From an uncultured Candidatus Saccharibacteria bacterium (GTDB lineage: Bacteria; Patescibacteriota; Doudnabacteria; UBA920), in NCBI GenBank assembly GCA_964483665.1, contig CAZACP010000002.1, positions 33,171 through 97,170 of the forward strand: DNA of 64,000 nt, given 5' to 3'. The translations under genes and the position numbers were made by a program. The notes below the pieces were generated by a model. That model did not search any database. It saw nothing but the letters and a program-made list of their open reading frames with translations, and was not told the origin of the DNA. Shown one piece after another: positions 8,592 to 61,469 of the stretch; the first letter of the stretch is position 1, and each line of letters starts with the position of its first letter.

Positions 8592-10151
8592 ATGGAAGAA
8601 ACTTCTTTTTCTTACAAAACCCTAAAGAATTCAAGCTATTTGTTTGCCGGCTTTTTGTTGCCGATGGTTTTTACTATATTCGTTACCAGAGCGTTAGCTC
8701 TCAAATTAGGGAGTGTTGATTTTGGAATTTATTTGTTAGTAAACGCAATAAGTTCATTTGTGGGGTTTGTTGATTTGGGTTTAAGCAGCGCCATAACCAA
8801 ATACGCTTCGGAATATTTAGCTAAGGGTGATATTAAAGCTTTACAAAACTTGTTGGGTTCAGCTAGAAGCTTATTTTTAGCCCTGGGGTTTTTGGGTGTT
8901 TTGGTTTTTGTAGTAATTGGTAAATGGTTCTTGCCTTTATTTCATGTCACGGCCGAAAGTCAGACACATATTTTGATTGTCTTTTTACTTGCTGGAGCGG
9001 CTTTTTTGTTAAATACTTTTGGCTTGGTTTACGGGTCAATTTTAACAGCTTTGCAAAGATTTGATATTTCTACCAAACTTTCTATGACTAGTTTGATAGT
9101 TACAAGTTTGGGCTCGATTTGGCTTTTACAGAATAGTTATCAATTAAAGGCTGTAATGGCCCTTAATGTTTGTGTGATTTTATTTACAATCGTTTTTACA
9201 ATGTATTATTCCAGAAAACTTTTGCCTGATTTGCGATTGAAATTTAGTTTCAACAGGACAGAAATGAAAAAAGCCTACAGTTTTGGTTTTCAGACTTTTA
9301 TTTCAAATTTAGCAGCAAGTTGTTTGCAATATTTGGATCGCTTAATAATCCCATTTTTTTTAGGACCGGCAGTTTTGCCTTTTTATAGTGTGCCGGGTAA
9401 TATTGCGATTAAAATTGTTGGAGTGACCAACAGCCTCTCGGGTATGTTTTTTCCCATGGCTAGCAGTTTGTCAGGTTCGGGAGAAATGGAAAAATTAAAA
9501 CAAATTTACTTAAGAGCTTTTCGAAATTTAAGTGTAGTAGCCGCAGGAACTACAATAGCCATAGTATTATTTGCGCAAAAAATATTAATGTTTTGGCTAG
9601 GTTCTGAGTATGCGGCAAATGGCAGTAAAATCCTGGTAATTTTGGCAATTACTTATTATTTTATTGGACTTTATATACCTTTGCAGAGTATTTTGTTAGG
9701 TTTAGGAAAAATGAAATTTTTAATTCGACAATCTATTTTAATGTCAGCTATAAATCTTACACTGCTGTTAATACTGGTTCCGAAAGCTGGTATTCTGGGA
9801 GCGGCTTGGGCATACCTAATTGCGGTTTTGCCAATGGCTTATGCTTTTTATTGGACCGAGCGTAATATTTTTGGTTTAAAAAATCAGTCATCATTTTACT
9901 TAAAACTCTATCTAAAAATATTTTTAGTAGCTTTTGTAGATGTGTTAATAATATATTTTTTGATAGAGCCCATAACTACCAGTCTATCGTTGTTAGTCAT
10001 CAGTGGGCCATTTTCGGTCGTGTTGTATTTTGTTTTGTATTTTGCTTTTGGTTTTGTAGAAACAGATGATATTTTACTATTTAAAAGTTTTTTTTATAAA
10101 ATTTTTAGAATTAAGAAACCATTATATGAATCAGGCGCCCCAGATAAATAA
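8592..10151 (+). CDS. wzx: Polysaccharide biosynthesis protein / oligosaccharide flippase (Wzx, MOP superfamily)
   Basis: About 14 predicted TM segments across 519 aa. It sits in a glycan locus. Confidence 0.7.
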   Translation: MEETSFSYKTLKNSSYLFAGFLLPMVFTIFVTRALALKLGSVDFGIYLLVNAISSFVGFVDLGLSSAITKYASEYLAKGDIKALQNLLGSARSLFLALGFLGVLVFVVIGKWFLPLFHVTAESQTHILIVFLLAGAAFLLNTFGLVYGSILTALQRFDISTKLSMTSLIVTSLGSIWLLQNSYQLKAVMALNVCVILFTIVFTMYYSRKLLPDLRLKFSFNRTEMKKAYSFGFQTFISNLAASCLQYLDRLIIPFFLGPAVLPFYSVPGNIAIKIVGVTNSLSGMFFPMASSLSGSGEMEKLKQIYLRAFRNLSVVAAGTTIAIVLFAQKILMFWLGSEYAANGSKILVILAITYYFIGLYIPLQSILLGLGKMKFLIRQSILMSAINLTLLLILVPKAGILGAAWAYLIAVLPMAYAFYWTERNIFGLKNQSSFYLKLYLKIFLVAFVDVLIIYFLIEPITTSLSLLVISGPFSVVLYFVLYFAFGFVETDDILLFKSFFYKIFRIKKPLYESGAPDK

Positions 10152-11040
10152 TAACTCAGTTTCACAACACAAGGCTATAATTACAGCAGCATCGGGTAAA
10201 TATTTTCCATCTTTAATAAATTTATTAGGATCAATAAAACAAAATTACCCCGATCATCCTAAAATATTTGTTTATGATTTGGGTATGCCAGCTATTTTTG
10301 TCTCCGAGCTTAAAAGCCTAAAGGACGTGGAAGTAATAGCCATGCCCATTTTTTGCAAGTTCTGGCGTAGTTGTTATACTTGGAAAACTTATATATTTAG
10401 CCACCCTTTGGCAGATTTAAATTTTTATCTGGATGCTGGCTGTCAAGTGTTAAGACCGCTGGACCGAATATTTGATACGCTTGAAAAAGAAGATTTTTTT
10501 GCCATAGGCCAAGGGGTTTTACTGGAAAAAATTGTACCAAAAGAATATAAAGCAATATTTGAAATTTCAAATGAATTCGATGACTGTGAAGTAATCCATG
10601 CCGGGGAATTTGGCTTCAAAAATAAAGGGAAAATTTCAAATATTTTGAACCAGACTTTTGACTGTGCTTTAAGCGGGTTAGCTTTGGGTTTTTCACCTAA
10701 AGATATTTGGAGAAATAAAGGTTATAATAAAAGTCAATTTGTTAGAAACTGTGAAATTTTTAGGCATGATTTAACATTATTAAATATTCTAATAAGGAAA
10801 CATTTCGGAAGGAATGTAAAAATTCATTCAGTAGAACAATTTGCTGGCGGCCGTAATGCTCATCAAGAACAATTTATATGGCATCTAAGGATGGACTTTA
10901 AAAATTTGAGCTATGTAAATTTAAGGTTTTTACATACAGATTTTAGCTGCGTGATTTTATTAAATCGTCTTGTAATAAGTTTGATGATTTTGATAAAGAA
11001 TTTTAAAACTTTTTTCAGAGAATTTAAAATTGGGCTTTGA
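10126..11040 (+). CDS. Hypothetical protein, possibly a GT-A-like nucleotide-sugar transferase
   Basis: Motifs KIFVYDLG and YLDAGCQVL are present. The internal ATG at 10126 was preferred over the track start 10066, which lies deep in the flippase gene. The call is weak. Confidence 0.35.
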   Translation: MNQAPQINNNSVSQHKAIITAASGKYFPSLINLLGSIKQNYPDHPKIFVYDLGMPAIFVSELKSLKDVEVIAMPIFCKFWRSCYTWKTYIFSHPLADLNFYLDAGCQVLRPLDRIFDTLEKEDFFAIGQGVLLEKIVPKEYKAIFEISNEFDDCEVIHAGEFGFKNKGKISNILNQTFDCALSGLALGFSPKDIWRNKGYNKSQFVRNCEIFRHDLTLLNILIRKHFGRNVKIHSVEQFAGGRNAHQEQFIWHLRMDFKNLSYVNLRFLHTDFSCVILLNRLVISLMILIKNFKTFFREFKIGL

Positions 11041-34074: not shown

Positions 34075-35832
34075 ATGGATATCAAACAGCTTAATGCTGC
34101 TTTAAAAGAAAAGCGGATATTAAACGAGGAAAAAATAAAAGCCCTGGAAAAAGACAGGCTTTCTTCCAAGAACCCAAGCGCTTGGGAAGATTTTTTAGTG
34201 GAAAAAAAGCTTTTGTTAGAGGAAGATTTGCTAAAAATAAAGGCGGAAATACTTAGCGTGCCGGTGGTGGATTTAAAAAATACCCAAATTTCTCAAGATG
34301 TTTTAAATTTAGTGCCAGAGCCTATTGCTCACAGGCATAAAGTTATAAGTTTTGCTAAAACCAAAGAAGGACTTTCTTTGGCAATGGTAGACCCCGACGA
34401 CATTCAAACCAGGGATTTTATACAAAAAAAGACAGGCCTTAAAATTCAAACTTTTTTAATTGGCAAAACTAGCTTAGACTCCGGGCTTTCTAAGTATCAC
34501 TCAAGTTTGGAAAAAGAAATTAAGCATTTGTTTACCCCGGAAGGCAAGTCCTTAACCGAAGGCGCTAAAGCCGAAGGGGAGAGCGCGGACGACGGCCTTA
34601 AGAAAATGGCCGAAGAGATTCCCGTTATACGCGTGGTAGACACTTTGCTTGAATACGCTGTATTTGAAAAAGCTTCCGACATTCATATTGAGCCGCAGGA
34701 AAGCGCGGTCACGGTTAGGTACCGTATAGACGGCGTGCTGCACGACGTTATGACTTTGCCTAAGGTAATTCAGGCGGCTATTGTTGCCCGCGTGAAGGTT
34801 TTGTCTAACTTAAAAATAGACGAACACAGGCTGCCTCAGGACGGCAGGTTTAAAATTGAAAAAGAAGGCTATAAGTTCAGTTTGCGCGTTTCTACCATAC
34901 CTATTTTTGACGGGGAAAAAGTAGTTATACGTCTTTTGGACGAATCTGCCAAAGCTCAGAGCCTGGAAGATTTGGGTTTTGAAAAATCTGCTTACGAAGC
35001 TATTTCTAGGAATGTAAAAAAGCCCCACGGCATGCTTTTAATTACCGGACCTACGGGAAGCGGCAAATCTACCACGCTTTATACCTTGCTTTCAATGCTA
35101 AATACTAAGTCTGTAAATATTTCAACCATTGAAGACCCTGTCGAATATCGAATTTCCGGCACCAACCAAATGCAGGTAAACCCGAAAATCGGCTTAACTT
35201 TTGCCATGGGTTTGCGTTCGCTTTTAAGGCAAGATCCTAACATAATTATGATTGGTGAAATCCGCGACAAAGAAACCGCGGAAGAAGCGGTGCACGCGGC
35301 AATGACCGGCCACGTTGTGTTTTCCACGCTTCATACCAATACCGCTGCCGGAGCTTTGCCCAGGCTTTTAGATATTGGAGTCGAAGCTTACCTTATTGCC
35401 TCCACCGTAAATGCCGTACTTGCTCAGCGTTTGGTTAGAGTAGTCTGCAAAGACTGCAAGACCAAGTATGAGTTAGACGACGCCATGATAGACAGTCTTT
35501 CCAAAATTTTTCATTTAGACAAATTAATGCCCGTGCTTACCAGGGAAGGGGTTGTTCCGGCAAAAGCAAAAAGCATAAAAGACCTGACTTTTTATAAAGG
35601 CGCGGGCTGCGACAAATGCAATAACAGCGGCTATAAAGGCCGTATGGGCATACACGAAATTTTGGAGGTTACTCCAGAAGTGGCCGACTTAATTATGCAG
35701 CACAAGAGCGCGCAGGAAATACAGGACGAAGCCGAAAAGCACGGCATGGTTTTAATGTGGGAGGACGGTTTTATAAAAGCCTTAAAGGGCATAACCACAG
35801 TTGACGAAATACTTAGAGTGAGCAAGGAATAA
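34075..35832 (+). CDS. pilB: Type IV pilus assembly ATPase PilB (GspE family)
   Basis: The Walker A motif GPTGSGKSTT is present, along with the tetracysteine CKDC...CDKC and an N-terminal GspE-N domain. Confidence 0.85.
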   Translation: MDIKQLNAALKEKRILNEEKIKALEKDRLSSKNPSAWEDFLVEKKLLLEEDLLKIKAEILSVPVVDLKNTQISQDVLNLVPEPIAHRHKVISFAKTKEGLSLAMVDPDDIQTRDFIQKKTGLKIQTFLIGKTSLDSGLSKYHSSLEKEIKHLFTPEGKSLTEGAKAEGESADDGLKKMAEEIPVIRVVDTLLEYAVFEKASDIHIEPQESAVTVRYRIDGVLHDVMTLPKVIQAAIVARVKVLSNLKIDEHRLPQDGRFKIEKEGYKFSLRVSTIPIFDGEKVVIRLLDESAKAQSLEDLGFEKSAYEAISRNVKKPHGMLLITGPTGSGKSTTLYTLLSMLNTKSVNISTIEDPVEYRISGTNQMQVNPKIGLTFAMGLRSLLRQDPNIIMIGEIRDKETAEEAVHAAMTGHVVFSTLHTNTAAGALPRLLDIGVEAYLIASTVNAVLAQRLVRVVCKDCKTKYELDDAMIDSLSKIFHLDKLMPVLTREGVVPAKAKSIKDLTFYKGAGCDKCNNSGYKGRMGIHEILEVTPEVADLIMQHKSAQEIQDEAEKHGMVLMWEDGFIKALKGITTVDEILRVSKE

Positions 35833-35942
35833 ATAAAATGACAAAAACGACGAAAATGAGCAAAAATGACAAAAATAGACTGCAATCTGCAGCAATATTT
35901 TTGTCATTTTTTTAATTTTTGTTCATTTTTGTCATTTAACCT
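35833..35942. promoter_or_regulatory. Highly palindromic intergenic element between pilB and pilC
   Basis: aaatgacaaaaa ... ctgcaatctgcag ... tttttgtcattt. The near-perfect dyad symmetry spans about 90 nt. Confidence 0.5.
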
Positions 35943-37154
35943 ATGGAATTCTCCTACGAAGCCATTGCAAAAGACGGGCACAGGGAAACTGCTACCATAA
36001 CGGCGGCTGACTCTGCCGCAGCCGGACATATGCTAAAAGAGCAGGGGCTTATACCAGTGGAAATAAAAGAAAAAGGCGCGGGCAATAATATTCTCGATAC
36101 GTTAAGAAAGTTTTCTACTATTTCTTTGGCGGAAAAAATCGGCTTTGTTGAAAATTTGCATATTATGTATAAAGCCGGCATTGCCTTGCCAAGAGCTTTG
36201 CAGATTTTGGTCAAGCAAAGTAAAAATTTAAGGTTTAAATTGGTTTTAACCGACATTTATAACCAAGTTCAATCGGGTAAATATTTGTCTGAAGCCTTGG
36301 AATCTCATTCTGAAGTTTTTTCCAATATTTTTTTAAGCATGGTAAGAGTGGGGGAAATGTCCGGCAGTTTAGAAAAGAGTCTTGAATATTTAAGCATTCA
36401 GCTTAAAAGAGAAGCGGATCTTAAAAGCAAAACCAAAGGCGCAATGATATATCCTTCGGTTATAGTCGGCGCCATGCTAATAATCGGCGTATTAATGTCA
36501 ATTTTTGTTTTGCCAAAATTGACTTCTGTTTTTAAGGATTTTAGCACTGATCTGCCTTTTGCCACGGTTATGGTTATAAAATTTGCGGACTTTATGCAAG
36601 GTAATGCGGTTTTGGTTATTGGCATGATGGTAGCTATAGTTGTTGCCTTTGTGTATTTGCTTAAAACGTATGTGGGAAAAAAATATTTTGGGTTTTTAAT
36701 TCTTCATACTTTAGTCATTGGGGAAATAGTCAGAAAAGTCAATTTAGCCCGTTTTGCCCGCATATTAAGCTCGCTTTTAAAAAGCAGCGTGAATATGGTT
36801 CAGGCGCTGCAGGTTACCTCGGAATCTTTGGGAAATGTGGCTTACCGCGAAATTGTTGCTCAATCGGCTGAGACTGTAAAACTCGGGAAAAATTTAACCG
36901 AAAGCCTGAGCAAAGAGCCTAATTTATTTCCTATTTTGGTGGTGCAAATGCTGCAGGTGGGGGAGGAGAGCGGAACCATAGAAGAAATGCTAAACCAGTT
37001 GGCTGAACACTATGAAGACGAGGTGGATACCACTCTAAAAAACCTGTCTTCCATAATAGAACCTTTGCTGCTTTTGGTTATTGGCGGAGTGGTTGGGCTG
37101 CTTGCCATGGCATTAATTATGCCAATTTATAATATTGGTGCTAATATAAAGTAA
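35943..37154 (+). CDS. pilC: Type IV pilus inner-membrane platform protein PilC (GspF family)
   Basis: It has the two-repeat GspF architecture and 3 TM segments. Confidence 0.8.
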   Translation: MEFSYEAIAKDGHRETATITAADSAAAGHMLKEQGLIPVEIKEKGAGNNILDTLRKFSTISLAEKIGFVENLHIMYKAGIALPRALQILVKQSKNLRFKLVLTDIYNQVQSGKYLSEALESHSEVFSNIFLSMVRVGEMSGSLEKSLEYLSIQLKREADLKSKTKGAMIYPSVIVGAMLIIGVLMSIFVLPKLTSVFKDFSTDLPFATVMVIKFADFMQGNAVLVIGMMVAIVVAFVYLLKTYVGKKYFGFLILHTLVIGEIVRKVNLARFARILSSLLKSSVNMVQALQVTSESLGNVAYREIVAQSAETVKLGKNLTESLSKEPNLFPILVVQMLQVGEESGTIEEMLNQLAEHYEDEVDTTLKNLSSIIEPLLLLVIGGVVGLLAMALIMPIYNIGANIK

Positions 37155-37178
37155 TACTACAGAGCTGTTGTTTTTCCG

Positions 37179-37295
37179 CACTACAGATGCCTACAGAAAT
37201 AAATTTATACATAAACCAAGCAATATAATTTTAAGAAATAAATATTATTAACTTCTTTAACTTTTAAATAGTAATTCTGTAGGCATTTGTAGTTT
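37179..37295. repeat. Inverted-repeat pair CTACAGATGCCTACAGAA / TTCTGTAGGCATTTGTAG flanking a 76-bp AT-rich core (copy A)
   Basis: Seen directly. The arms lie at 37179-37198 and 37275-37295. Confidence 0.7.
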
Positions 37296-37318
37296 ATCTT
37301 ATTCGTAGCTCAGTAGTT

Positions 37319-38371
37319 ATGTTTAATTTTTCTAAAACTTTAAGTTCCATAGGCCTGGACATAAGCTCGGGCAGCATCAAGCTAATGCAGGTAAAAAAAG
37401 ACGGCAAAAATTTTGTTGTTAAAGCTTTTTCCCGCGCTTCTTTGCCTAAAGGCGCTGTAATTAACGACCTTGTGGCAGACCAAAAAACTTTTGGTTTTTT
37501 AATTAAGCAGGCTCTAGACAAGCCGCAGTTTGGCAGGTTTGATACCCAATATGTAACAGTTTCTTTACCCGAGGCTAAATCTTTTATTCGGGTAATACAA
37601 ATACCTAAAATGTCCGACCTGGAAAGCGAATCGGCTGTGCCTTACGAAGCGGAGAGCTTTATACCTATGCCTATTGACCAGGTCTATTTGGACTGGCAAA
37701 AGGTAGGCGAGACTTCGGAAAAAAACAACATATTAATTATTGCTAGCCCGAAAGAGTATGTTGAAAAATATTTGGAACTAATTGACTTAAGCGGTCTTAA
37801 GCCGACAGCGCTTGAGGCTGAATCGCAAAGTTTGTGCAGAAGCCTAATTGGTTGGAAGTCGGAGGAGACCTCGTTTATTGCCGATATAGACGCAAGTCGG
37901 AGCAATTTGGTTATGATAGAAGCGGGAAATTTGCAGTTTTCTTCTACTGTGCCTATAGCCGGGGGAGCCTTTACCGAGAGCTTGGCTCGGTCTTTGGGCG
38001 TTGCTTCGGCAAAAGCCGAAGAAATAAAAAAGAAAGTCGGGCTTTTAAACACCGCCGAGTACCCGAACATTAAAATTTCTTTAGCGCCGATTTTAAATAA
38101 TTTAACTGCCGAAATTAAAAATGTTTTAAAATTTCACTCGGAAAGGTCTGAAAAACCGGTTGAAAAAGTTATATTGGCCGGAGGCGGCGCAAAGTTAAAG
38201 GGGATGATAGATTTAATGCAGAATGATTTTGCTTCGGAAGGCAATATTAAAGTGGAACTTGGTAATCCGTGGAGGAATTTAAGCGAACTTAAATCCCCGC
38301 CAATTTTTGGCGAGGAGGCCTTAAGCTGGAGCACGGCGATTGGCCTTGCTATAAGAAATTATGAAGAGTAG
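37319..38371 (+). CDS. pilM: Type IV pilus assembly protein PilM (actin-like ATPase fold)
   Basis: The motif SIGLDISSGSIKLMQV is present and the protein is 350 aa. Confidence 0.7.
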   Translation: MFNFSKTLSSIGLDISSGSIKLMQVKKDGKNFVVKAFSRASLPKGAVINDLVADQKTFGFLIKQALDKPQFGRFDTQYVTVSLPEAKSFIRVIQIPKMSDLESESAVPYEAESFIPMPIDQVYLDWQKVGETSEKNNILIIASPKEYVEKYLELIDLSGLKPTALEAESQSLCRSLIGWKSEETSFIADIDASRSNLVMIEAGNLQFSSTVPIAGGAFTESLARSLGVASAKAEEIKKKVGLLNTAEYPNIKISLAPILNNLTAEIKNVLKFHSERSEKPVEKVILAGGGAKLKGMIDLMQNDFASEGNIKVELGNPWRNLSELKSPPIFGEEALSWSTAIGLAIRNYEE

Positions 38372-40302: not shown

Positions 40303-40379
40303 GGCTCCGTAGCTCATTTGGATAGAGCGCCTGGCTTCGAACCAGGAGGTAGTAGGTTCAAATCCTACCGGAGTCACCA
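40303..40379 (+). tRNA. tRNA-Arg (anticodon UCG)
   Basis: Manual cloverleaf. Acceptor ggctccg/cggagtc (one G-U pair). D-arm gctc-atttggata-gagc. Anticodon stem cctgg/ccagg with loop cttcgaa. T-arm gtagg-ttcaaat-cctac. Discriminator A and an encoded CCA. Confidence 0.75.
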
Positions 40380-40403
40380 CGAATCATTTTTGCGAGTCAG
40401 GCG

Positions 40404-40500
40404 GGTGGGAAGCGCCTGGCTTCGAACCAGGAGGTAGTAGAGCCTGTCCTGAGCGAAGTCGAAGGATTCGAATTCTACCGGGTGCGCCATTGAAAAATAT
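40404..40500 (+). other. tRNA-derived fragment / pseudo-tRNA
   Basis: A 28-nt exact copy of the tRNA-Arg anticodon arm (40413-40440) sits in a context that does not fold as a cloverleaf. A second 18-nt copy of the D-arm lies at 40264-40281, just 5' of the tRNA. Confidence 0.5.
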
Positions 40501-40558
40501 AGCTAACTAATGTAAACTGTCATAGTGTCTAAAAATATGCTCCCTTAATAAGGGAACC

Positions 40559-40636
40559 CCAAAAATTAGGAGCGCACACAATCTACTTTTTCTAGCCTTA
40601 AAAAAGTAGATTGGGGAGCACGGATTTTTGGGGAGA
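40559..40636 (+). ncRNA. Candidate structured RNA element (nested hairpin), unclassified
   Basis: ccccaaaaat...aatctacttttt-ctagcctta-aaaaagtagatt...atttttgggg. Outer and inner perfect stems enclose GC-rich internal loops. Two more hairpins follow at 40655-40700. Confidence 0.3.
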
Positions 40637-40705
40637 GGAGCAATTGCGAAGGGTATGAGTTTTGGTCTAAAGACCAAAACGTAAGCCCGAAGCAAATTGC
40701 GACGT

Positions 40706-40781
40706 GGATCGGTAGCTCAGTTGGTAGAGCAGCGGACTCTTAATCCGCTTGTCGTGGGTTCGATCCCCACCCGATCCACCA
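40706..40781 (+). tRNA. tRNA-Lys (anticodon CUU)
   Basis: Acceptor ggatcgg/ccgatcc. D-arm gctc-agttggta-gagc. Anticodon stem gcgga/tccgc with loop ctcttaa. T-arm gtggg-ttcgatc-cccac. An A followed by CCA is encoded. Confidence 0.85.
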
Positions 40782-40832: not shown

Positions 40833-41825
40833 ATGTTGTATTTATATTTAGGGGCGGATGATTTTACGAAAAAACAGAAAATTGACTCTTTGGTTAAAGA
40901 AAAAAGGGCGGAGTTAGTCGTGTTTGGAGAGGGCGATGAAACACCAAAAGTTCAGGATTTAATAGCAACAGATTTATTCTCAAAGCCAAAGGTTTTTGTT
41001 CTTAGTCTCCCTCCCCCTTTGGGGGAGGGTAAGGGAGAGGGTGTATTGATTATTGACAAATTAATATTATCTTCCAACCACATAGTTATTTCAACTATTT
41101 CTTTAGACAAGCGAAAAAAAGAAAACAAGGATATATTGCTAAACAAAAAAATAATAGTAAAGGAATTTATTTTGCCTCACGGCCAAGAGCTTGATAAATG
41201 GATTTTAGAAAGAGTCTTGTTGCTTGGCGGAAAAATGTCAAAAGACGCGGCAAACCAATTGGCCGTGCGGTTAGGCCGGGACGAAGCAAAAGAAACTAAA
41301 TTTGGCGGTAAAGTGGTAAGCACCGAAGAAGTTTTTAGCTTATGGCAAGCGGACAGTGAAATTAAGAAATTAATAGCTTATTCAGGCGGACGAGAAATAA
41401 CAAAAGAAGATGTAATAGAATTAGTTTCGGAAAATGGGGAGGTCGATGCTCTGCAAATAACTAACGCTCTTGCGGACAAGAACAAGGAACTCTCATTTTT
41501 GCTAATACAAAAGTTTTTAAAAGAACAAACGGCAAGCGACGAAAAAGGCAGCATAATTCAACTAAACGCGCTACTTTCTGAGCAGTTTAGGAACGTGGCA
41601 ATCACGCAGGATTTTGCAAATAGAAAAACAAATGAGGCGGAAATTTTGGAAAAAACCGGGTGGAAAAGCGGAAGGCTTTTTGTAATGAAGAAAATTTCCG
41701 ACAGATTCGACCAGGCTAAAGTAGTGGAAACTTTAAGCAAATTAGCCAGTTTAGACGAGGAAATTAAGACTTCCCAAATGCCGCCAAGAGTGCTGCTCGA
41801 GCTTATTTTGGGGCAATTGTTTTAG
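40833..41825 (+). CDS. holA: DNA polymerase III delta subunit-like protein
   Basis: The N-terminus LYLYLGADDF matches the delta-subunit opening pattern, and the length is about 330 aa. The gene contains an in-frame GC-rich palindromic insert at 41027-41063. Confidence 0.45.
   Translation: MLYLYLGADDFTKKQKIDSLVKEKRAELVVFGEGDETPKVQDLIATDLFSKPKVFVLSLPPPLGEGKGEGVLIIDKLILSSNHIVISTISLDKRKKENKDILLNKKIIVKEFILPHGQELDKWILERVLLLGGKMSKDAANQLAVRLGRDEAKETKFGGKVVSTEEVFSLWQADSEIKKLIAYSGGREITKEDVIELVSENGEVDALQITNALADKNKELSFLLIQKFLKEQTASDEKGSIIQLNALLSEQFRNVAITQDFANRKTNEAEILEKTGWKSGRLFVMKKISDRFDQAKVVETLSKLASLDEEIKTSQMPPRVLLELILGQLF
41027..41063. repeat. GC-rich palindromic element (copy 1) inside the holA-like CDS
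   Basis: ccctccccc-ttt-gggggaggg followed by taagggagagggtg. It encodes LPPPLGEGKGEG in-frame. Confidence 0.65.
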
Positions 41826-41931: not shown

Positions 41932-42984
41932 ATGAATAACAAGATGCTTAAAATTGCAGCGAGCGCTGCAATTTCCGCCGGACTTATTTTTCCGGCATTT
42001 TCAGCATTAGCTGTTACATCCCAAGAATTACAAGGAAAAATATTGGGCATTCAGACTTCAATGAAAGAACAGTCTGAATCGTACAAAAAAGAAATGGAAC
42101 AGAAGCGCGAAGAGCTTAAAGATTTAATGGAAGCCAAGGCTGAATCTTATAAGAAGGAAATGGAAAGCAAGCGAGAAGAGTTAAAGAAGTTGTCGGAAGA
42201 AAAAAAAGAAGCTTTGAAAAAAGAAGCCGAAAGCAAGAGAGAAGAGCTGAAGAAGAAAGCGGAAGAACAGAAAGAGGCTTTAAAAATTTGTAAGCAGCAG
42301 AATAAAGATGTAAATGAAGATTATTCTGAAGCTGCCAAAGTTGCCAGGGAAGTTCGCTCGGAAGCGTTAAAAAAAGCCAGGGAGACCAGGCAGACTGAGT
42401 TAAAAACTGCTTTAGAAACAAGAAAAGCGGCTCGCGCCCAGGTAATTGGCACTAGTACCACCACTAACAGTACCTTAAAAGCCACAAGAAACGCTGCTAT
42501 TGAAACTGCTAAGAATACCAGAAAAACTGAAATTGAAGCCGCTAAAACCGTACTTAATAATGTATTAAATGCAAGTTCAACCCCGGAAAGCATTGCCGCT
42601 GCTAAGGTTGCTTACGAAGCTGCGGTTAAAGCTGCGAACCAAAAGTACGAAGCTGCGGTAAAAGCGGCTAATGAAGCCTATAAAGCAGCTGCAGGCACAA
42701 GCGCAGATTCTTATAAAGAAGCAATGAAAGATGCTAACGAAGCATATGCGGAGGCGGTTAAAGCGGCTAATGAAAAATATAATGCTGCGGTAAAAGCGGC
42801 TAATGAAGCCTATAAAGCAGCTACAAAAACAGCCGGCGAAACTAGAAAGTCAAATATAAAAAATTGCACAACCTCGGGAAATTCAACTTCTACACCTCCC
42901 TCTACAACCCCGACACCTACGCCGACTCCTTCGCCCACAGTCACTCCAACTCCAACCCCTACAGCCACCCCGACCCCCACCTAA
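41932..42984 (+). CDS. Secreted repetitive protein (signal peptide, coiled-coil repeats, AAVKAANEAYKAA repeats, C-terminal Pro/Thr-rich tail)
   Basis: The signal peptide MNNKMLKIAASAAISAGLIFPAFSALA is present. Tandem repeats at the DNA level span 42060-42300 and 42600-42830. The C-terminal tail reads TPTPTPTPSPTVTPTPTPTATPTPT. Confidence 0.6.
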   Translation: MNNKMLKIAASAAISAGLIFPAFSALAVTSQELQGKILGIQTSMKEQSESYKKEMEQKREELKDLMEAKAESYKKEMESKREELKKLSEEKKEALKKEAESKREELKKKAEEQKEALKICKQQNKDVNEDYSEAAKVAREVRSEALKKARETRQTELKTALETRKAARAQVIGTSTTTNSTLKATRNAAIETAKNTRKTEIEAAKTVLNNVLNASSTPESIAAAKVAYEAAVKAANQKYEAAVKAANEAYKAAAGTSADSYKEAMKDANEAYAEAVKAANEKYNAAVKAANEAYKAATKTAGETRKSNIKNCTTSGNSTSTPPSTTPTPTPTPSPTVTPTPTPTATPTPT

Positions 42985-43327
42985 GCTAGCTTTAAAAACT
43001 CCCTTGCTATCTGCCCGCCAAAGTTATTCCAAAATACCTAATAGGACAAATAACACAGATAAAATACGTCTAGAGAGTATTTAATCTGTGGGATCAAGTG
43101 GTATTAGTGAATTTATGGTTAAAAACCTTGGCAGGCAGTTTACCCAGCACCTTTCTTTGTGAACTTAAACTTCCCAGGAATTAAATCTCAATAATTATTT
43201 TGGAATAATAGTTTAGGAGATTTTGAAAGGTGCTGGGTTTAGCAGGGGAGTTTTTGTTTGTTTTTTATTTAAATCCCAGCCAGCATTAGGGGGGATTTTT
43301 TGGTATAATTATTCCAAGGAGGGCCTA

Positions 43328-43825
43328 ATGAGGCTGCTAGCTCTTTTCTTGTTCGCTTTTCTTGCCTACGGGCAAGACGTTTTGGTGGAAAACTTGACGT
43401 TCCCGCCCCTTGCGCGGCAGGCCCGGATCGGGAGTGAAGTGATAATATTGGTTGGACGAGAGGGCGTTGAGGTTTTGTCAGGGCACTGGCTGTTTGTGCC
43501 AACTGCTATTTCCAACCTGGCCGTTTTAGCGGCGCTTGGGGCCATTCCTGATAGTGTTTTGGTTGCTCAGTATTACTTCATTATCGAACACCCGGAAACA
43601 CTTATGACTACGGAATATGTTGACCGTAATTTTTTTAGTCGCATATTTTTAAAGTTGTTCCGGCGCCCTACGGGCAAAATAATTCAATATAAAAATTGTA
43701 TTAACCCAACTGAACAGCAAAAGAAAAACACATTCTCAGTCATAAAAGGCGTGTTGAGGGTTACTGTCCAACATCAAGCTCAATGCTTGGTGACAGAACC
43801 CTCTCGGCTGCTCGCCGAAAAATGA
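43328..43825 (+). CDS. Hypothetical secreted protein on a GC-rich islet
   Basis: The RBS AAGGAGG and an ATG at 43328 give the signal-like N-terminus MRLLALFLFAFLAYG. GC content is elevated over 43250-43880. Confidence 0.4.
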   Translation: MRLLALFLFAFLAYGQDVLVENLTFPPLARQARIGSEVIILVGREGVEVLSGHWLFVPTAISNLAVLAALGAIPDSVLVAQYYFIIEHPETLMTTEYVDRNFFSRIFLKLFRRPTGKIIQYKNCINPTEQQKKNTFSVIKGVLRVTVQHQAQCLVTEPSRLLAEK

Positions 43826-48209: not shown

Positions 48210-48599
48210 TCATGCTCCCTTTGCCACCAAAATGTCAATGAACTCACCAATCGTGGCTGTAGGCTCCATGTCTGGCAAGAAAACCATGTTGCGGTTGGAC
48301 GTCCACAAAATCTTCGCAAGCAGAATATTATATTCAAGCTGATTGGTGATATACCGCTGCAGAGGTTGTGCATCGGCAATTTCTTCGATGCTGACTTTGC
48401 ATGTCGAAGATATAAATCTGTATATCGCCTTTGCAATCCGGAATTCCGGCTTCTCATCACACAGCTGCTGTTCGGCAATCTGCCAGTTTGCTAGCTGGTC
48501 CGGATTTGTAGACTCGAGCCAAACCTGCATTGCCCGCATGCGGATTATTTCCACCCGCTGTTTTTCCCTTGGAAGGCTTTCGAATTCAATTGTCATCTG
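48210..48599 (-). CDS. Hypothetical protein (about 130 aa) on a GC-rich insert
   Basis: ATG at 48599 (MTIEFESLPREKQ...). It is the lower-coordinate part of the track ORF 48210..49148. No family recognised. Confidence 0.35.
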   Translation of the reverse strand, partial: QMTIEFESLPREKQRVEIIRMRAMQVWLESTNPDQLANWQIAEQQLCDEKPEFRIAKAIYRFISSTCKVSIEEIADAQPLQRYITNQLEYNILLAKILWTSNRNMVFLPDMEPTATIGEFIDILVAKGA

Positions 48600-48704
48600 C
48601 TCCTCCAGTTTGTTGGCCAAGCACAGGCCTTGTGCGCCGCGGGTTCTGCCGTGGCTCAGTTTGGTAAGTAAGTTATTGTAGTAAAAACGTCTAAAAAAAT
48701 CAAT

Positions 48705-48829
48705 AATACTTCCAACTCCAGCCGGGTTTACTACACCGGTAGCCCGGAAATAATTACAGAAGAAGAAAGTTTCAAATTGCCGGAAATTCCCGAAACGCCA
48801 ATAATAATAAATTAAAATGAATACAGCGC
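48705..48829. repeat. Direct repeat copy 2 (orphan duplicate of the gene 3' end; encodes ...SNSSRVYYTGSPEIITEEESFKLPEIPETPIIIN*)
   Basis: Aligned by eye to copy 1. It carries a 3-nt in-frame deletion and about 10 substitutions, and is followed by its own GC-rich hairpin. Confidence 0.75.
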
Positions 48830-48876
48830 GCTGCCTTGGGGGCGGCGCGCTGTTATGGCGAGTCGTCGAGCGGTGC

Positions 48877-49215
48877 TTAGGCTGCCTTGTACCAGATGAA
48901 GACACTTGACAGCTGGAGGCGCTGAACTGGTTCTTCGGGGACAGCTTTGTCATTCCCGGATCCGTCGCCGGGGTCAAATGTCGCAGGTATGATGAACGCG
49001 ACCTCTTCAACCCATGCCCGTTTACGCAGGATGGCTCGTGCGATGCTTTTCGAACTGTGCACGTAACAGGCCGCCAGTTCCGGCCTGTCGATCCATCGGG
49101 GTCTGCGAAGCTCGCCCTTTTTGTTCCAGCGGCTTCCGCTGAGAGCAATTACTTCGCCGTTGTCGCGTATTTTCAGTACAATGATGTAGCCACGAACCGG
49201 TTTGGCTGTTGGCAT
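48877..49215 (-). CDS. Hypothetical protein (112 aa) on a GC-rich insert
   Basis: ATG at 49215 (MPTAKPVRGYIIVLKIRDNGEVIALSG...). No family recognised. Confidence 0.3.
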   Translation of the reverse strand: MPTAKPVRGYIIVLKIRDNGEVIALSGSRWNKKGELRRPRWIDRPELAACYVHSSKSIARAILRKRAWVEEVAFIIPATFDPGDGSGNDKAVPEEPVQRLQLSSVFIWYKAA

Positions 49216-60809: not shown

Positions 60810-61469
60810 TTGAGCAAAATTTATAATACAGAAGAAGAAAAAATTTTCAAAAAACTGAATTCGTCTAAGAAAATTCAGGATTTTTTGAATTCACTTACCA
60901 TCAACTTTGAAAAAAAGGGGGAGACGGTTTATTCACCAAGGATGGTTATAAAACATAAAAAAGCGCATTGTATGGAAGGCGCTATGTTTGCGGCCGCGGC
61001 TTTGGAATATCATGGTCAAAAGCCGTGGGTAATGGATTTGCGTTCTATAGATAGCGATTATGACCACGTGGTTGCGGTGTTTCAGCAGTTTGGCTGCTAT
61101 GGGGCAATTTCTAAAACTAACCACGCAGTGCTTAGATATCGCGAACCAATTTATAAAACTATACGCGAACTGGCCTTGTCGTATTTTCATGAATATTTTA
61201 CAGACAGCGGCAAAAAAACTTTAAGGGAATACTCAAGAATTTTTGATTTAAGCTGGTTTGATAAGCACCCTCACCCCCAACCCCTCTCCCAGAGGGAGAG
61301 GGGAGAAAAATATAGTTGGAGAACGAGTGAAGAAAATTTATTTGAAATACCGGAAAAGTTAGATAAAATAAAGCACTACTCAATACTATCATCAGCACAG
61401 GTTAAAAACCTTCGCAAGGCAGATGCAATAGAAATAAAAGCCGGGAAGTTGGTGGAATTTAAAAGTTAG
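60810..61469 (+). CDS. Hypothetical protein carrying an in-frame GC-rich palindromic insert
   Basis: ORF. The insert at 61266-61305 encodes HPHPQPLSQRERGEK. Confidence 0.45.
   Translation: MSKIYNTEEEKIFKKLNSSKKIQDFLNSLTINFEKKGETVYSPRMVIKHKKAHCMEGAMFAAAALEYHGQKPWVMDLRSIDSDYDHVVAVFQQFGCYGAISKTNHAVLRYREPIYKTIRELALSYFHEYFTDSGKKTLREYSRIFDLSWFDKHPHPQPLSQRERGEKYSWRTSEENLFEIPEKLDKIKHYSILSSAQVKNLRKADAIEIKAGKLVEFKS
61266..61305. repeat. GC-rich palindromic element (copy 2, opposite orientation to copy 1)
   Basis: cccctctccc-aga-gggagagggg preceded by caccctcacccccaa. Its reverse complement parallels copy 1. Confidence 0.65.

Follow-up and report, generated by a model that had tools for sequence, protein, structure and literature searches.

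A short repeat of Escherichia coli and other Proteobacteria, here the TM repeat, went at first by the name of BoxC, afterwards by PIT (potential intrastrand triplex) and later by TMECO (Holder et al. 2015, PMC4666352, where the earlier BoxC/PIT work of Bachellier and of Hoyne and Maher is cited). The published pattern is CCCTCNCCC N3-6 GGGNGAGGG N3 GGGNGAGGG, and in vitro single-stranded TMECO oligonucleotides fold stably into a class II purine-motif triplex (PMC4666352). The 23 copies of Escherichia coli K-12 are "always located intergenically", show neither promoter nor terminator activity nor any association with transposons and occupy loci that are unusually variable between E. coli strains; the repeat has been noticed since the 1990s, its function and mechanism of mobilisation not being established (PMC4666352). 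When analysing a stretch of 64,000 nucleotides from contig CAZACP010000002.1 of an uncultured Candidatus Saccharibacteria bacterium (GTDB Patescibacteriota; Doudnabacteria), hereafter the window, two elements were found which by sequence and architecture belong to BoxC/PIT/TMECO, one inside the gene for the DNA polymerase III delta subunit (holA) and one inside the gene for a cysteine protease of the CPR-C4 family (CPR, candidate phyla radiation). The window has a GC content of 38% and is 93% coding, and it is in our judgement likely that the elements are copies of a dispersed repeat of this class which survives in so densely coding a genome as in-frame insertions in protein loops.

Each copy has a C-rich arm of 9–10 nt, separated by a loop of 3 nt from its G-rich complement, and then another G-rich arm with GGGTG at its end, and the two lie in opposite orientations in long plus-strand open reading frames (ORFs), keeping the frame of both; this is as given in a preliminary description of the same DNA, made from the letters alone, which placed copy 2 correctly but copy 1 (as 41027–41063) about 20 nt too far to the right. 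Copy 1 reads CTCCCTCCCCC-TTT-GGGGGAGGG-TAA-GGGAGAGGGTG on the plus strand, and its core, 41009–41041, is an exact fit to the published TMECO pattern, while copy 2, read on the minus strand as TCCCCTCTCCC-TCT-GGGAGAGGG-GTTGG-GGGTGAGGG-TG, fits except that its second loop has 5 nt instead of 3. A search with a relaxed form of the pattern, CCCTCNCCC N3-6 GGGNGAGGG N2-5 GGGNGAGGG, returned these two copies and no additional ones in the window, against no match in 100 dinucleotide-preserving shuffles. Both elements were missed by a scan for GC islands (at least 23 GC in 28 nt), which mostly returned ordinary GC-rich coding stretches. When globally aligned with the K-12 copies of the published Table 1, the two window copies, another copy from this genome (the third) and one relative's copy were 84–92% identical to them, and blastn gave 91.7% identity over 34 nt in E. 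coli chromosomes, where no feature is annotated.

Neither copy is an assembly artefact, since the insert-bearing proteins recur on independent contigs, at least 14 for the CPR-C4 protein with copy 2 (ENA, Logan and NCBI assemblies) and two in the ENA collection for the holA protein with copy 1 (P0121). A CRISPR or a tandem repeat was ruled out as there is no array, and so was an intein or intron, the element being too short and its strict in-frame, stop-free survival implying that it is translated.

The likeness to the E. coli family includes the consensus and the three-arm architecture, in which the second G-rich arm is mirror-related. In both, the arms are conserved and loop 2 is variable (the copy in a relative, locus L007, has CCG, which is the E. 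coli 'type B' loop), single units occur beside head-to-head pairs, the form originally called BoxC, and the copies are dispersed and multiple, have no associated transposase and occupy sites that are locally unstable. The two sets differ in that the E. coli copies are intergenic whereas those described here lie in-frame in conserved genes, that the host is a low-GC CPR bacterium and not a proteobacterium, that the second loop of copy 2 has 5 nt and that particular protein loops are hit recurrently; in addition many IMG/VR contigs contain the pattern, in contrast to the 2015 paper, which reported that phages were not associated with it (PMC4666352). What is seen here is a repeat class already described, but in a phylum and a context (inside genes) that are new for it and with landing sites that recur, and no prior description of in-frame TM units in genes of CPR/Patescibacteria was found in the open-access literature.

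The ORF that harbours copy 2 had been listed as a hypothetical gene but was identified as a CPR-C4 protease both by Foldseek (PDB 7OB6, 7OB7 and 7PJO, TM-score ~0.8, 49–50% identity) and by phmmer against the crystallised protein (E = 5e-57). Copy 2 contributes the peptide HPHPQPLSQRERGEK, amino acids 153–167 of 219, and the alignment with the crystallised CPR-C4 shows a gap exactly at the window's HPHPQPLSQRERG; the insertion goes unmentioned in the paper describing the structure. Among 112 close homologues the site is empty in 59 (12 aa) and filled in 53, with 7–67 extra residues, and the inserts include antisense TM units in many variants, some in tandem, together with at least three other types of palindromic insert. 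Even within the clade of the window's protein (proteins at least 75% identical) the site has at least four different states. Short GC-rich palindromes in general appear to use this site as a landing pad.

At this site, which corresponds to 61263–61313 of the window, four homologues carry the palindrome GCCGATAAATCGGC, encoding the peptide ADKSARY (L265:3150-3797), another has a palindromic insert CTTCGTCCGC...GCGGACTACGAAG with the peptide PTSSARGGLRRAS (L011:~10001-10633), and a composite insert of 67 residues is found in a Doudnabacteria metagenome-assembled genome (MAG; L013:10001-10801). Homologues of the protease with 53–61% identity were also seen on MAG contigs labelled as DPANN archaea, namely Woesearchaeota, Pacearchaeota and Nanoarchaeota (L023, L026, L027, L034 and others), the cause being either that the gene was transferred between CPR and DPANN or that bins carry wrong labels.

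In the ORF with copy 1 Pfam recognises DNA_pol3_delta_C (E = 7e-14), and homologues of the protein carry the annotation DNA polymerase III delta subunit. The element encodes LPPPLGEGKGEG, residues L59–G70 of 330. A relative with a 79%-identical holA (L007) has the element too, a 76%-identical holA is without it and shows an ancestral-looking LPDLDN instead, one close relative retains a decayed remnant, and in more distant orthologues the loop is an ordinary one and similarly long. That the peptides are insertions had been proposed from the letters and is borne out by the gap in the crystal structure of CPR-C4, by the 59 empty homologues and by this 76%-identical holA; their supposed location in surface loops likewise agrees with the AlphaFold models, where both inserts lie in coil of low pLDDT. 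In holA this is the coil between strand 53–57 and helix 69–79, its confidence being among the lowest in the protein, and in CPR-C4 the confidence at residues 151–170 is below that of both flanks.

When comparing the holA genes of the window and L007, the nucleotide identity is 77.5% overall and 61% at third codon positions, while the element is identical at 35 of 38 positions and the three differences all fall in loop 2 (TAA versus CCG); the longest identical run between the two genes is the stretch formed by the C-arm, the loop and the G-arm. A second holA clade carries units in the same loop, in sense orientation in L266 and in antisense orientation in L267, where the unit is a clean insertion of 33 nt (11 codons) between conserved codons without target-site duplication. 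Opposite orientations at one site are hard to obtain by descent and therefore point to at least two independent events. In a further holA (L008:10001-11026, GCA_964453265.1) a GC-rich stretch of 30 nt, TCGGCCTGCCCGCAGTAGCCTTGGCGAAGGCG, is nested in loop 2 of the TM unit and adds PARSSLGEGG. A close relative (81% identity) has both the holA and the CPR-C4 site empty and not a single unit in 20 kb.

Further copies, whose absence would have spoken against a repeat, exist both in the same genome and in relatives. Seven kb past the end of the window lies a third locus, L001:14436-14483, a compact four-arm form in a 307-aa ORF, which brings the number to three loci in ~71 kb of this genome. A scan for the three arms, run over 1.36 Mb of the surroundings of CPR-C4 homologues (Patescibacteria loci and MAGs labelled as DPANN archaea), revealed 18 units versus none in five shuffles. 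Eleven of the 18 are found in one Doudnabacteria locus of 20.6 kb (L063), in-frame in CarB, CarA and HisRS (histidyl-tRNA synthetase) and at the C-terminus of a DUF559 protein. The L063 CarB (carbamoyl-phosphate synthase large subunit), when compared to solved structures, has a 29-aa insertion between QYAVNP and VIEVNAR which corresponds to a head-to-head pair of units, and such pairs occur in this locus in CarA (carbamoyl-phosphate synthase small subunit) as well. The window copies and most of those in L063 are in-frame inside genes backed by Pfam or PDB matches, and every genic copy is in-frame. The copies have a conserved 3' end, GGGTG, and an A/T-rich 5' flank, but neither a consistent target-site duplication at the 18 copies nor a fixed 5' target tetranucleotide could be found. 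A metagenome scan of related loci (0.4 Mb) gave one more unit and mostly distant orthologues with an empty site.

In IMG/VR at least 120 stretches match the pattern, on contigs with a GC content of 36–73%; their ORF context is uninterpretable on the high-GC contigs, where long spurious ORFs are usual. One annotated phage record has the pattern under a head-morphogenesis gene. The viral contig IMGVR_UViG_3300014057_000020, of low GC content (36%), holds two units (L200:155-188 and L201:2144-2178), one of which is identical over 35 nt to the commonest E. coli K-12 copy, 'type A mm' (CCCTCGCCCCTTTGGGGAGAGGGTTAGGGTGAGGG).

The same arms, read in differing frames and orientations, give rise to the peptides LPPPLGEGKGEG, HPHPQPLSQRERG, PPHPTLSLKGRG, PSPNPSPPGRGK or IPPPRGRRLGGG, and conservation is hence at the level of the DNA and not of the peptide. 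The repeat is probably mobile. New copies would have been added at new sites without target-site duplication, possibly by single-strand, structure-dependent transposition or by a repair or recombination event acting in trans, and the lack of a duplication is compatible with HUH-type single-strand transposition as well as with insertion mediated by repair or recombination. Since the window is 93% coding, a repeat that is added repeatedly would find little intergenic DNA and mostly land in genes, and the survivors would be those that are in-frame, free of stops and in tolerant surface loops; landing in genes followed by such a filter would account for the in-frame status, the loop locations, the patchy distribution, the decay and the nesting. 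Surviving copies would be translated as flexible loops rich in Pro, Gly, Ser, Arg and Glu because of their C- and G-rich codons, the peptides being by-products of the DNA rather than selected. Occupied sites would remain unstable through decay, nesting and replacement, whereby a few permissive loops would become recurrent landing sites.

A number of observations weigh against insertion by a mobile repeat. No transposase or other mobilising gene was identified among the 14 window ORFs scanned, the E. coli literature likewise reporting none, and in-vivo footprinting in E. coli showed no triplex (PMC4666352). The junction between filled and empty site is clean in one case only (L267), and the window holA element nets only ~4–5 residues over typical orthologues; it seems to overlie or replace 6–7 ancestral codons rather than being a simple insertion, so that replacement or later trimming must be allowed for. 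The TM-type inserts at the CPR-C4 site all share one orientation and could also go back to one old insertion with later divergence and losses, and the number of changes between states of this site, at least 24 on a neighbour-joining tree with Fitch parsimony versus 36 with shuffled tips, is inflated by tree error, although the scatter of the states is clear. Copy number and the ratio of coding to intergenic copies are moreover extrapolated from ~71 kb of the genome.

The hairpin part of the fold was computed for both copies. The 9-bp DNA hairpin of copy 1 has -10.9 kcal/mol (z = -2.5) and the 10-bp hairpin of copy 2 -11.7 kcal/mol (z = -3.8), within an overall range for the computed DNA hairpins of -10.9 to -11.8 kcal/mol and z = -2.5 to -4.5, while the RNA hairpins reach -19.6 and -21.2 kcal/mol, with a z-score of -0.73, which is not significant, for copy 1. 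By inspection, the class II triplex scheme (PMC4666352) would be satisfied by compatible triplets at 8 of 9 positions in copy 1 and at 9 of 9 in copy 2. A canonical G-quadruplex motif (four G3+ tracts, 1–7 nt apart) can be read in both, as GGGGG-A-GGG-TAA-GGG-AGA-GGG in copy 1 and GGG-AGA-GGGG-TT-GGGGG-TGA-GGG on the minus strand of copy 2. As single-stranded DNA the TM unit may take the form of a hairpin, of a purine-motif intrastrand triplex or of a G-quadruplex. An equilibrium between hairpin, antiparallel triplex and G-quadruplex has been observed in vitro for the G-quadruplex/C-track repeats of Methanomicrobiaceae, which are dispersed and recurrent and also have a run of four G-tracts beside a complementary C-track; in these the C-track is situated 3' of the G-run instead of 5', the reported copies are all intergenic and the host is an archaeon (PMC8044849).

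The elements might be selected structural switches (hairpin, triplex or G-quadruplex) acting in cis on the host gene or the chromosome, for instance through intragenic pausing of transcription or translation, through mRNA stability or as programmed sites of recombination or instability. The stable hairpins (about -11 to -12 kcal/mol as DNA and -20 to -21 as RNA), the arms conserved by nucleotide beside a variable loop 2 and the four G-tracts of both copies would suit such a role, as would the triplex and G-quadruplex formed in vitro by related oligonucleotides (PMC4666352, PMC8044849) and the local instability at the E. coli copies (PMC4666352). It is nevertheless an unlikely explanation: the two copies are oppositely oriented to transcription and hence give differing mRNA structures, the functions of their host genes are unrelated, the element is missing from most orthologues, the RNA hairpin of copy 1 is unremarkable by its z-score, and a purine-motif triplex is not formed in RNA, nor was regulatory activity found in E. 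coli (PMC4666352).

The holA copy also calls for considering a local origin, in which template switching makes an inverted repeat from a stretch rich in Pro codons and slippage then duplicates the G-arm. The C-arm codons of the window holA (LPPPL) overlie an ancestral L-P-(D/E)-L motif and the net gain is small, and the missing target-site duplication agrees with such an origin too. However, arms of the form C3-T-C-N-C3 / G3-N-G-A-G3 are common to unrelated loci and phyla, with 84–92% identity to E. coli copies, the motif never appears in shuffled sequence and the L267 unit is a clean 33-nt insertion in the opposite orientation with conserved codons on both sides, which makes independent local origins improbable.

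Still less can be said for the motif being recognised by a system that binds or takes up DNA, in the manner of uptake signal sequences or of the REP sites bound by gyrase or IHF, and being retained on that account wherever there is room for it, within genes too. Conservation across phyla and across contigs of 36–73% GC would fit, and the window contains a type IV pilus or competence-like cluster with PilB, PilC and PilM homologues, but a density of ~1 per 20–25 kb here and of zero in 20 kb of the 81%-identical relative is far below that of known uptake sequences, the distribution among close relatives is patchy and no binding protein is known; we regard this as very improbable. That the Pro/Gly-rich peptides are selected flexible linkers and the palindromic DNA incidental, a reading already disfavoured, is hardly credible, for although both peptides are hydrophilic, lie in loops and would be tolerable there, the arms, being read in more than one frame and in either orientation, yield unrelated peptides, they are better conserved than synonymous sites of the host gene, and the segment is absent from most orthologues and from the solved structure.

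Other repeat families were compared with the elements as well. Rickettsia palindromic elements (RPE), to which the preliminary description likened them, are ~150 bp long, form families each with a conserved encoded peptide and are confined to Rickettsia (PMC10969869). The comparison holds for the colonisation of unrelated, often essential genes by in-frame palindromic repeats that encode surface segments compatible with the fold, but membership was rejected on length (33–45 versus ~100–150 bp) and on peptides that depend on frame and orientation; the present units are GC-pure in an AT-rich genome, use several reading frames and belong to another sequence family, BoxC/PIT/TMECO.

REP sequences and REPINs are short imperfect palindromes, present as singlets and inverted doublets and mobilised by RAYT (HUH Y1) transposases. 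The TM units resemble them in being dispersed, non-autonomous and inserted without target duplication, while REPs are extragenic and lack a third arm; a GTAG-like tetranucleotide was not seen at the 5' flanks and no RAYT gene was found among the 14 window ORFs scanned. Miniature inverted-repeat transposable elements, with terminal inverted repeats and target-site duplication, were discarded as a class, the 33-nt insertion of L267 having no flanking duplication.

At gathering thresholds Rfam reports only two tRNAs in the window. With permissive E-values, RF01762 (whalefall-1) matches both copies in the orientation of the element, at 41007–41042 (+) and 61267–61304 (-), with 17.8 and 14.4 bits versus a gathering threshold of 37 and with the outer parts of the model only, whereas the nested variant in L008 gives no match. 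Membership was not accepted, the scores being below threshold, and the match is kept as a lead. The whalefall-1 RNA is known only from whale-fall metagenomes. Its outer parts (UCUCUCC..GGAGAGA ... AGGGUGAGGAC) resemble a TM unit with a 24-nt insert, and the 'RNA' might be a related DNA repeat.

Taking the reading as a dispersed repeat further, BoxC/TMECO motifs could constitute an insertional family that spreads actively across phyla without a transposase of its own, prefers certain DNA or structural contexts in conserved genes of the gene-dense CPR bacteria and uses phage-borne copies as vehicles between phyla. This is put forward tentatively and is on balance doubtful; if true, the CPR-C4 site, the beta-alpha loop of holA and the ATP-grasp loop of CarB would be recurrent landing pads and a source of loop diversification. 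Near-identical units in a distant phylum, in-frame in essential genes, mean that the family is much broader than described and that its members can be translated. Alleles of one site that are filled, empty, oppositely oriented or decayed offer natural material on gain and loss of the motif, and the loops in holA, CPR-C4, CarB, CarA and HisRS that recurrent hits mark as permissive may be of use in protein engineering. The inserts also break up profile matches, and CPR proteins can be wrongly aligned, annotated or modelled on their account.

Table 1. Coordinates of the TM elements, their parts and their host genes in the window.
Feature	Position	Strand	Remarks
Host gene 1, DNA polymerase III delta subunit (holA), 330 aa	40833–41825	+	
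TM element copy 1	41007–41044	+	sense orientation in holA; 89% identical to one E. coli K-12 copy
Copy 1 C-arm, CCCTCCCCC	41009–41017	+	9-bp hairpin with 41021–41029
Copy 1 loop 1, TTT	41018–41020	+	
Copy 1 first G-arm, GGGGGAGGG	41021–41029	+	putative duplex purine strand
Copy 1 loop 2, TAA	41030–41032	+	
Copy 1 second G-arm and tail, GGGAGAGGG-TG	41033–41043	+	candidate third strand
Predicted tryptic holA peptide over the insert junction, VFVLSLPPPLGEGK			
Host gene 2, CPR-C4 family cysteine protease, 219 aa	60810–61469	+	structure and sequence matches; PMC9108980
TM element copy 2	61266–61304	-	antisense orientation in CPR-C4 gene; 86% identical to one E. coli copy
Probable full CPR-C4 insertion, 45 nt (15 codons)	61266–61310	+	filled versus empty-site DNA; gap in PDB 7OB6; encodes HPHPQPLSQRERGEK

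Outside the two elements, a GC-pure inverted repeat with arms of 13 nt, ACAGCGCGCTGCC / GGCGGCGCGCTGT, and 5 nt between the arms was identified at 48823–48853, within a 312-aa minus-strand ORF (48210–49148) that has no Pfam match. No second copy of this exact pattern was found among the related loci examined, nor was one found there of the palindrome ACAGCGCGC...GCGCGCTGT, while a stretch partly similar to the inverted repeat, AACAGCGCGGCCGGCGCGCTGCC, is located in the PilB-like gene of L008 (3519-3548). A GC-rich island, GACGTTCCCGCCCCTTGCGCGGCAGGCCCGGATCGGGAG, is situated at 43396–43434 in a 200-aa ORF (43223–43825) without Pfam match, and no inverted repeat was detected in it. Directly downstream of holA, 41932–42984 encodes a 350-aa repetitive protein rich in Ala, Lys and Glu, with a signal-like N-terminus, a (Thr-Pro)n tail and no Pfam match. 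Upstream of holA, at 34075–38371 and 40303–40781, lie the type IV pilus-like cluster (PilB/T2SSE ATPase, PilC/T2SSF and PilM) and, immediately before the gene, tRNA-Arg(TCG) and tRNA-Lys(CTT).

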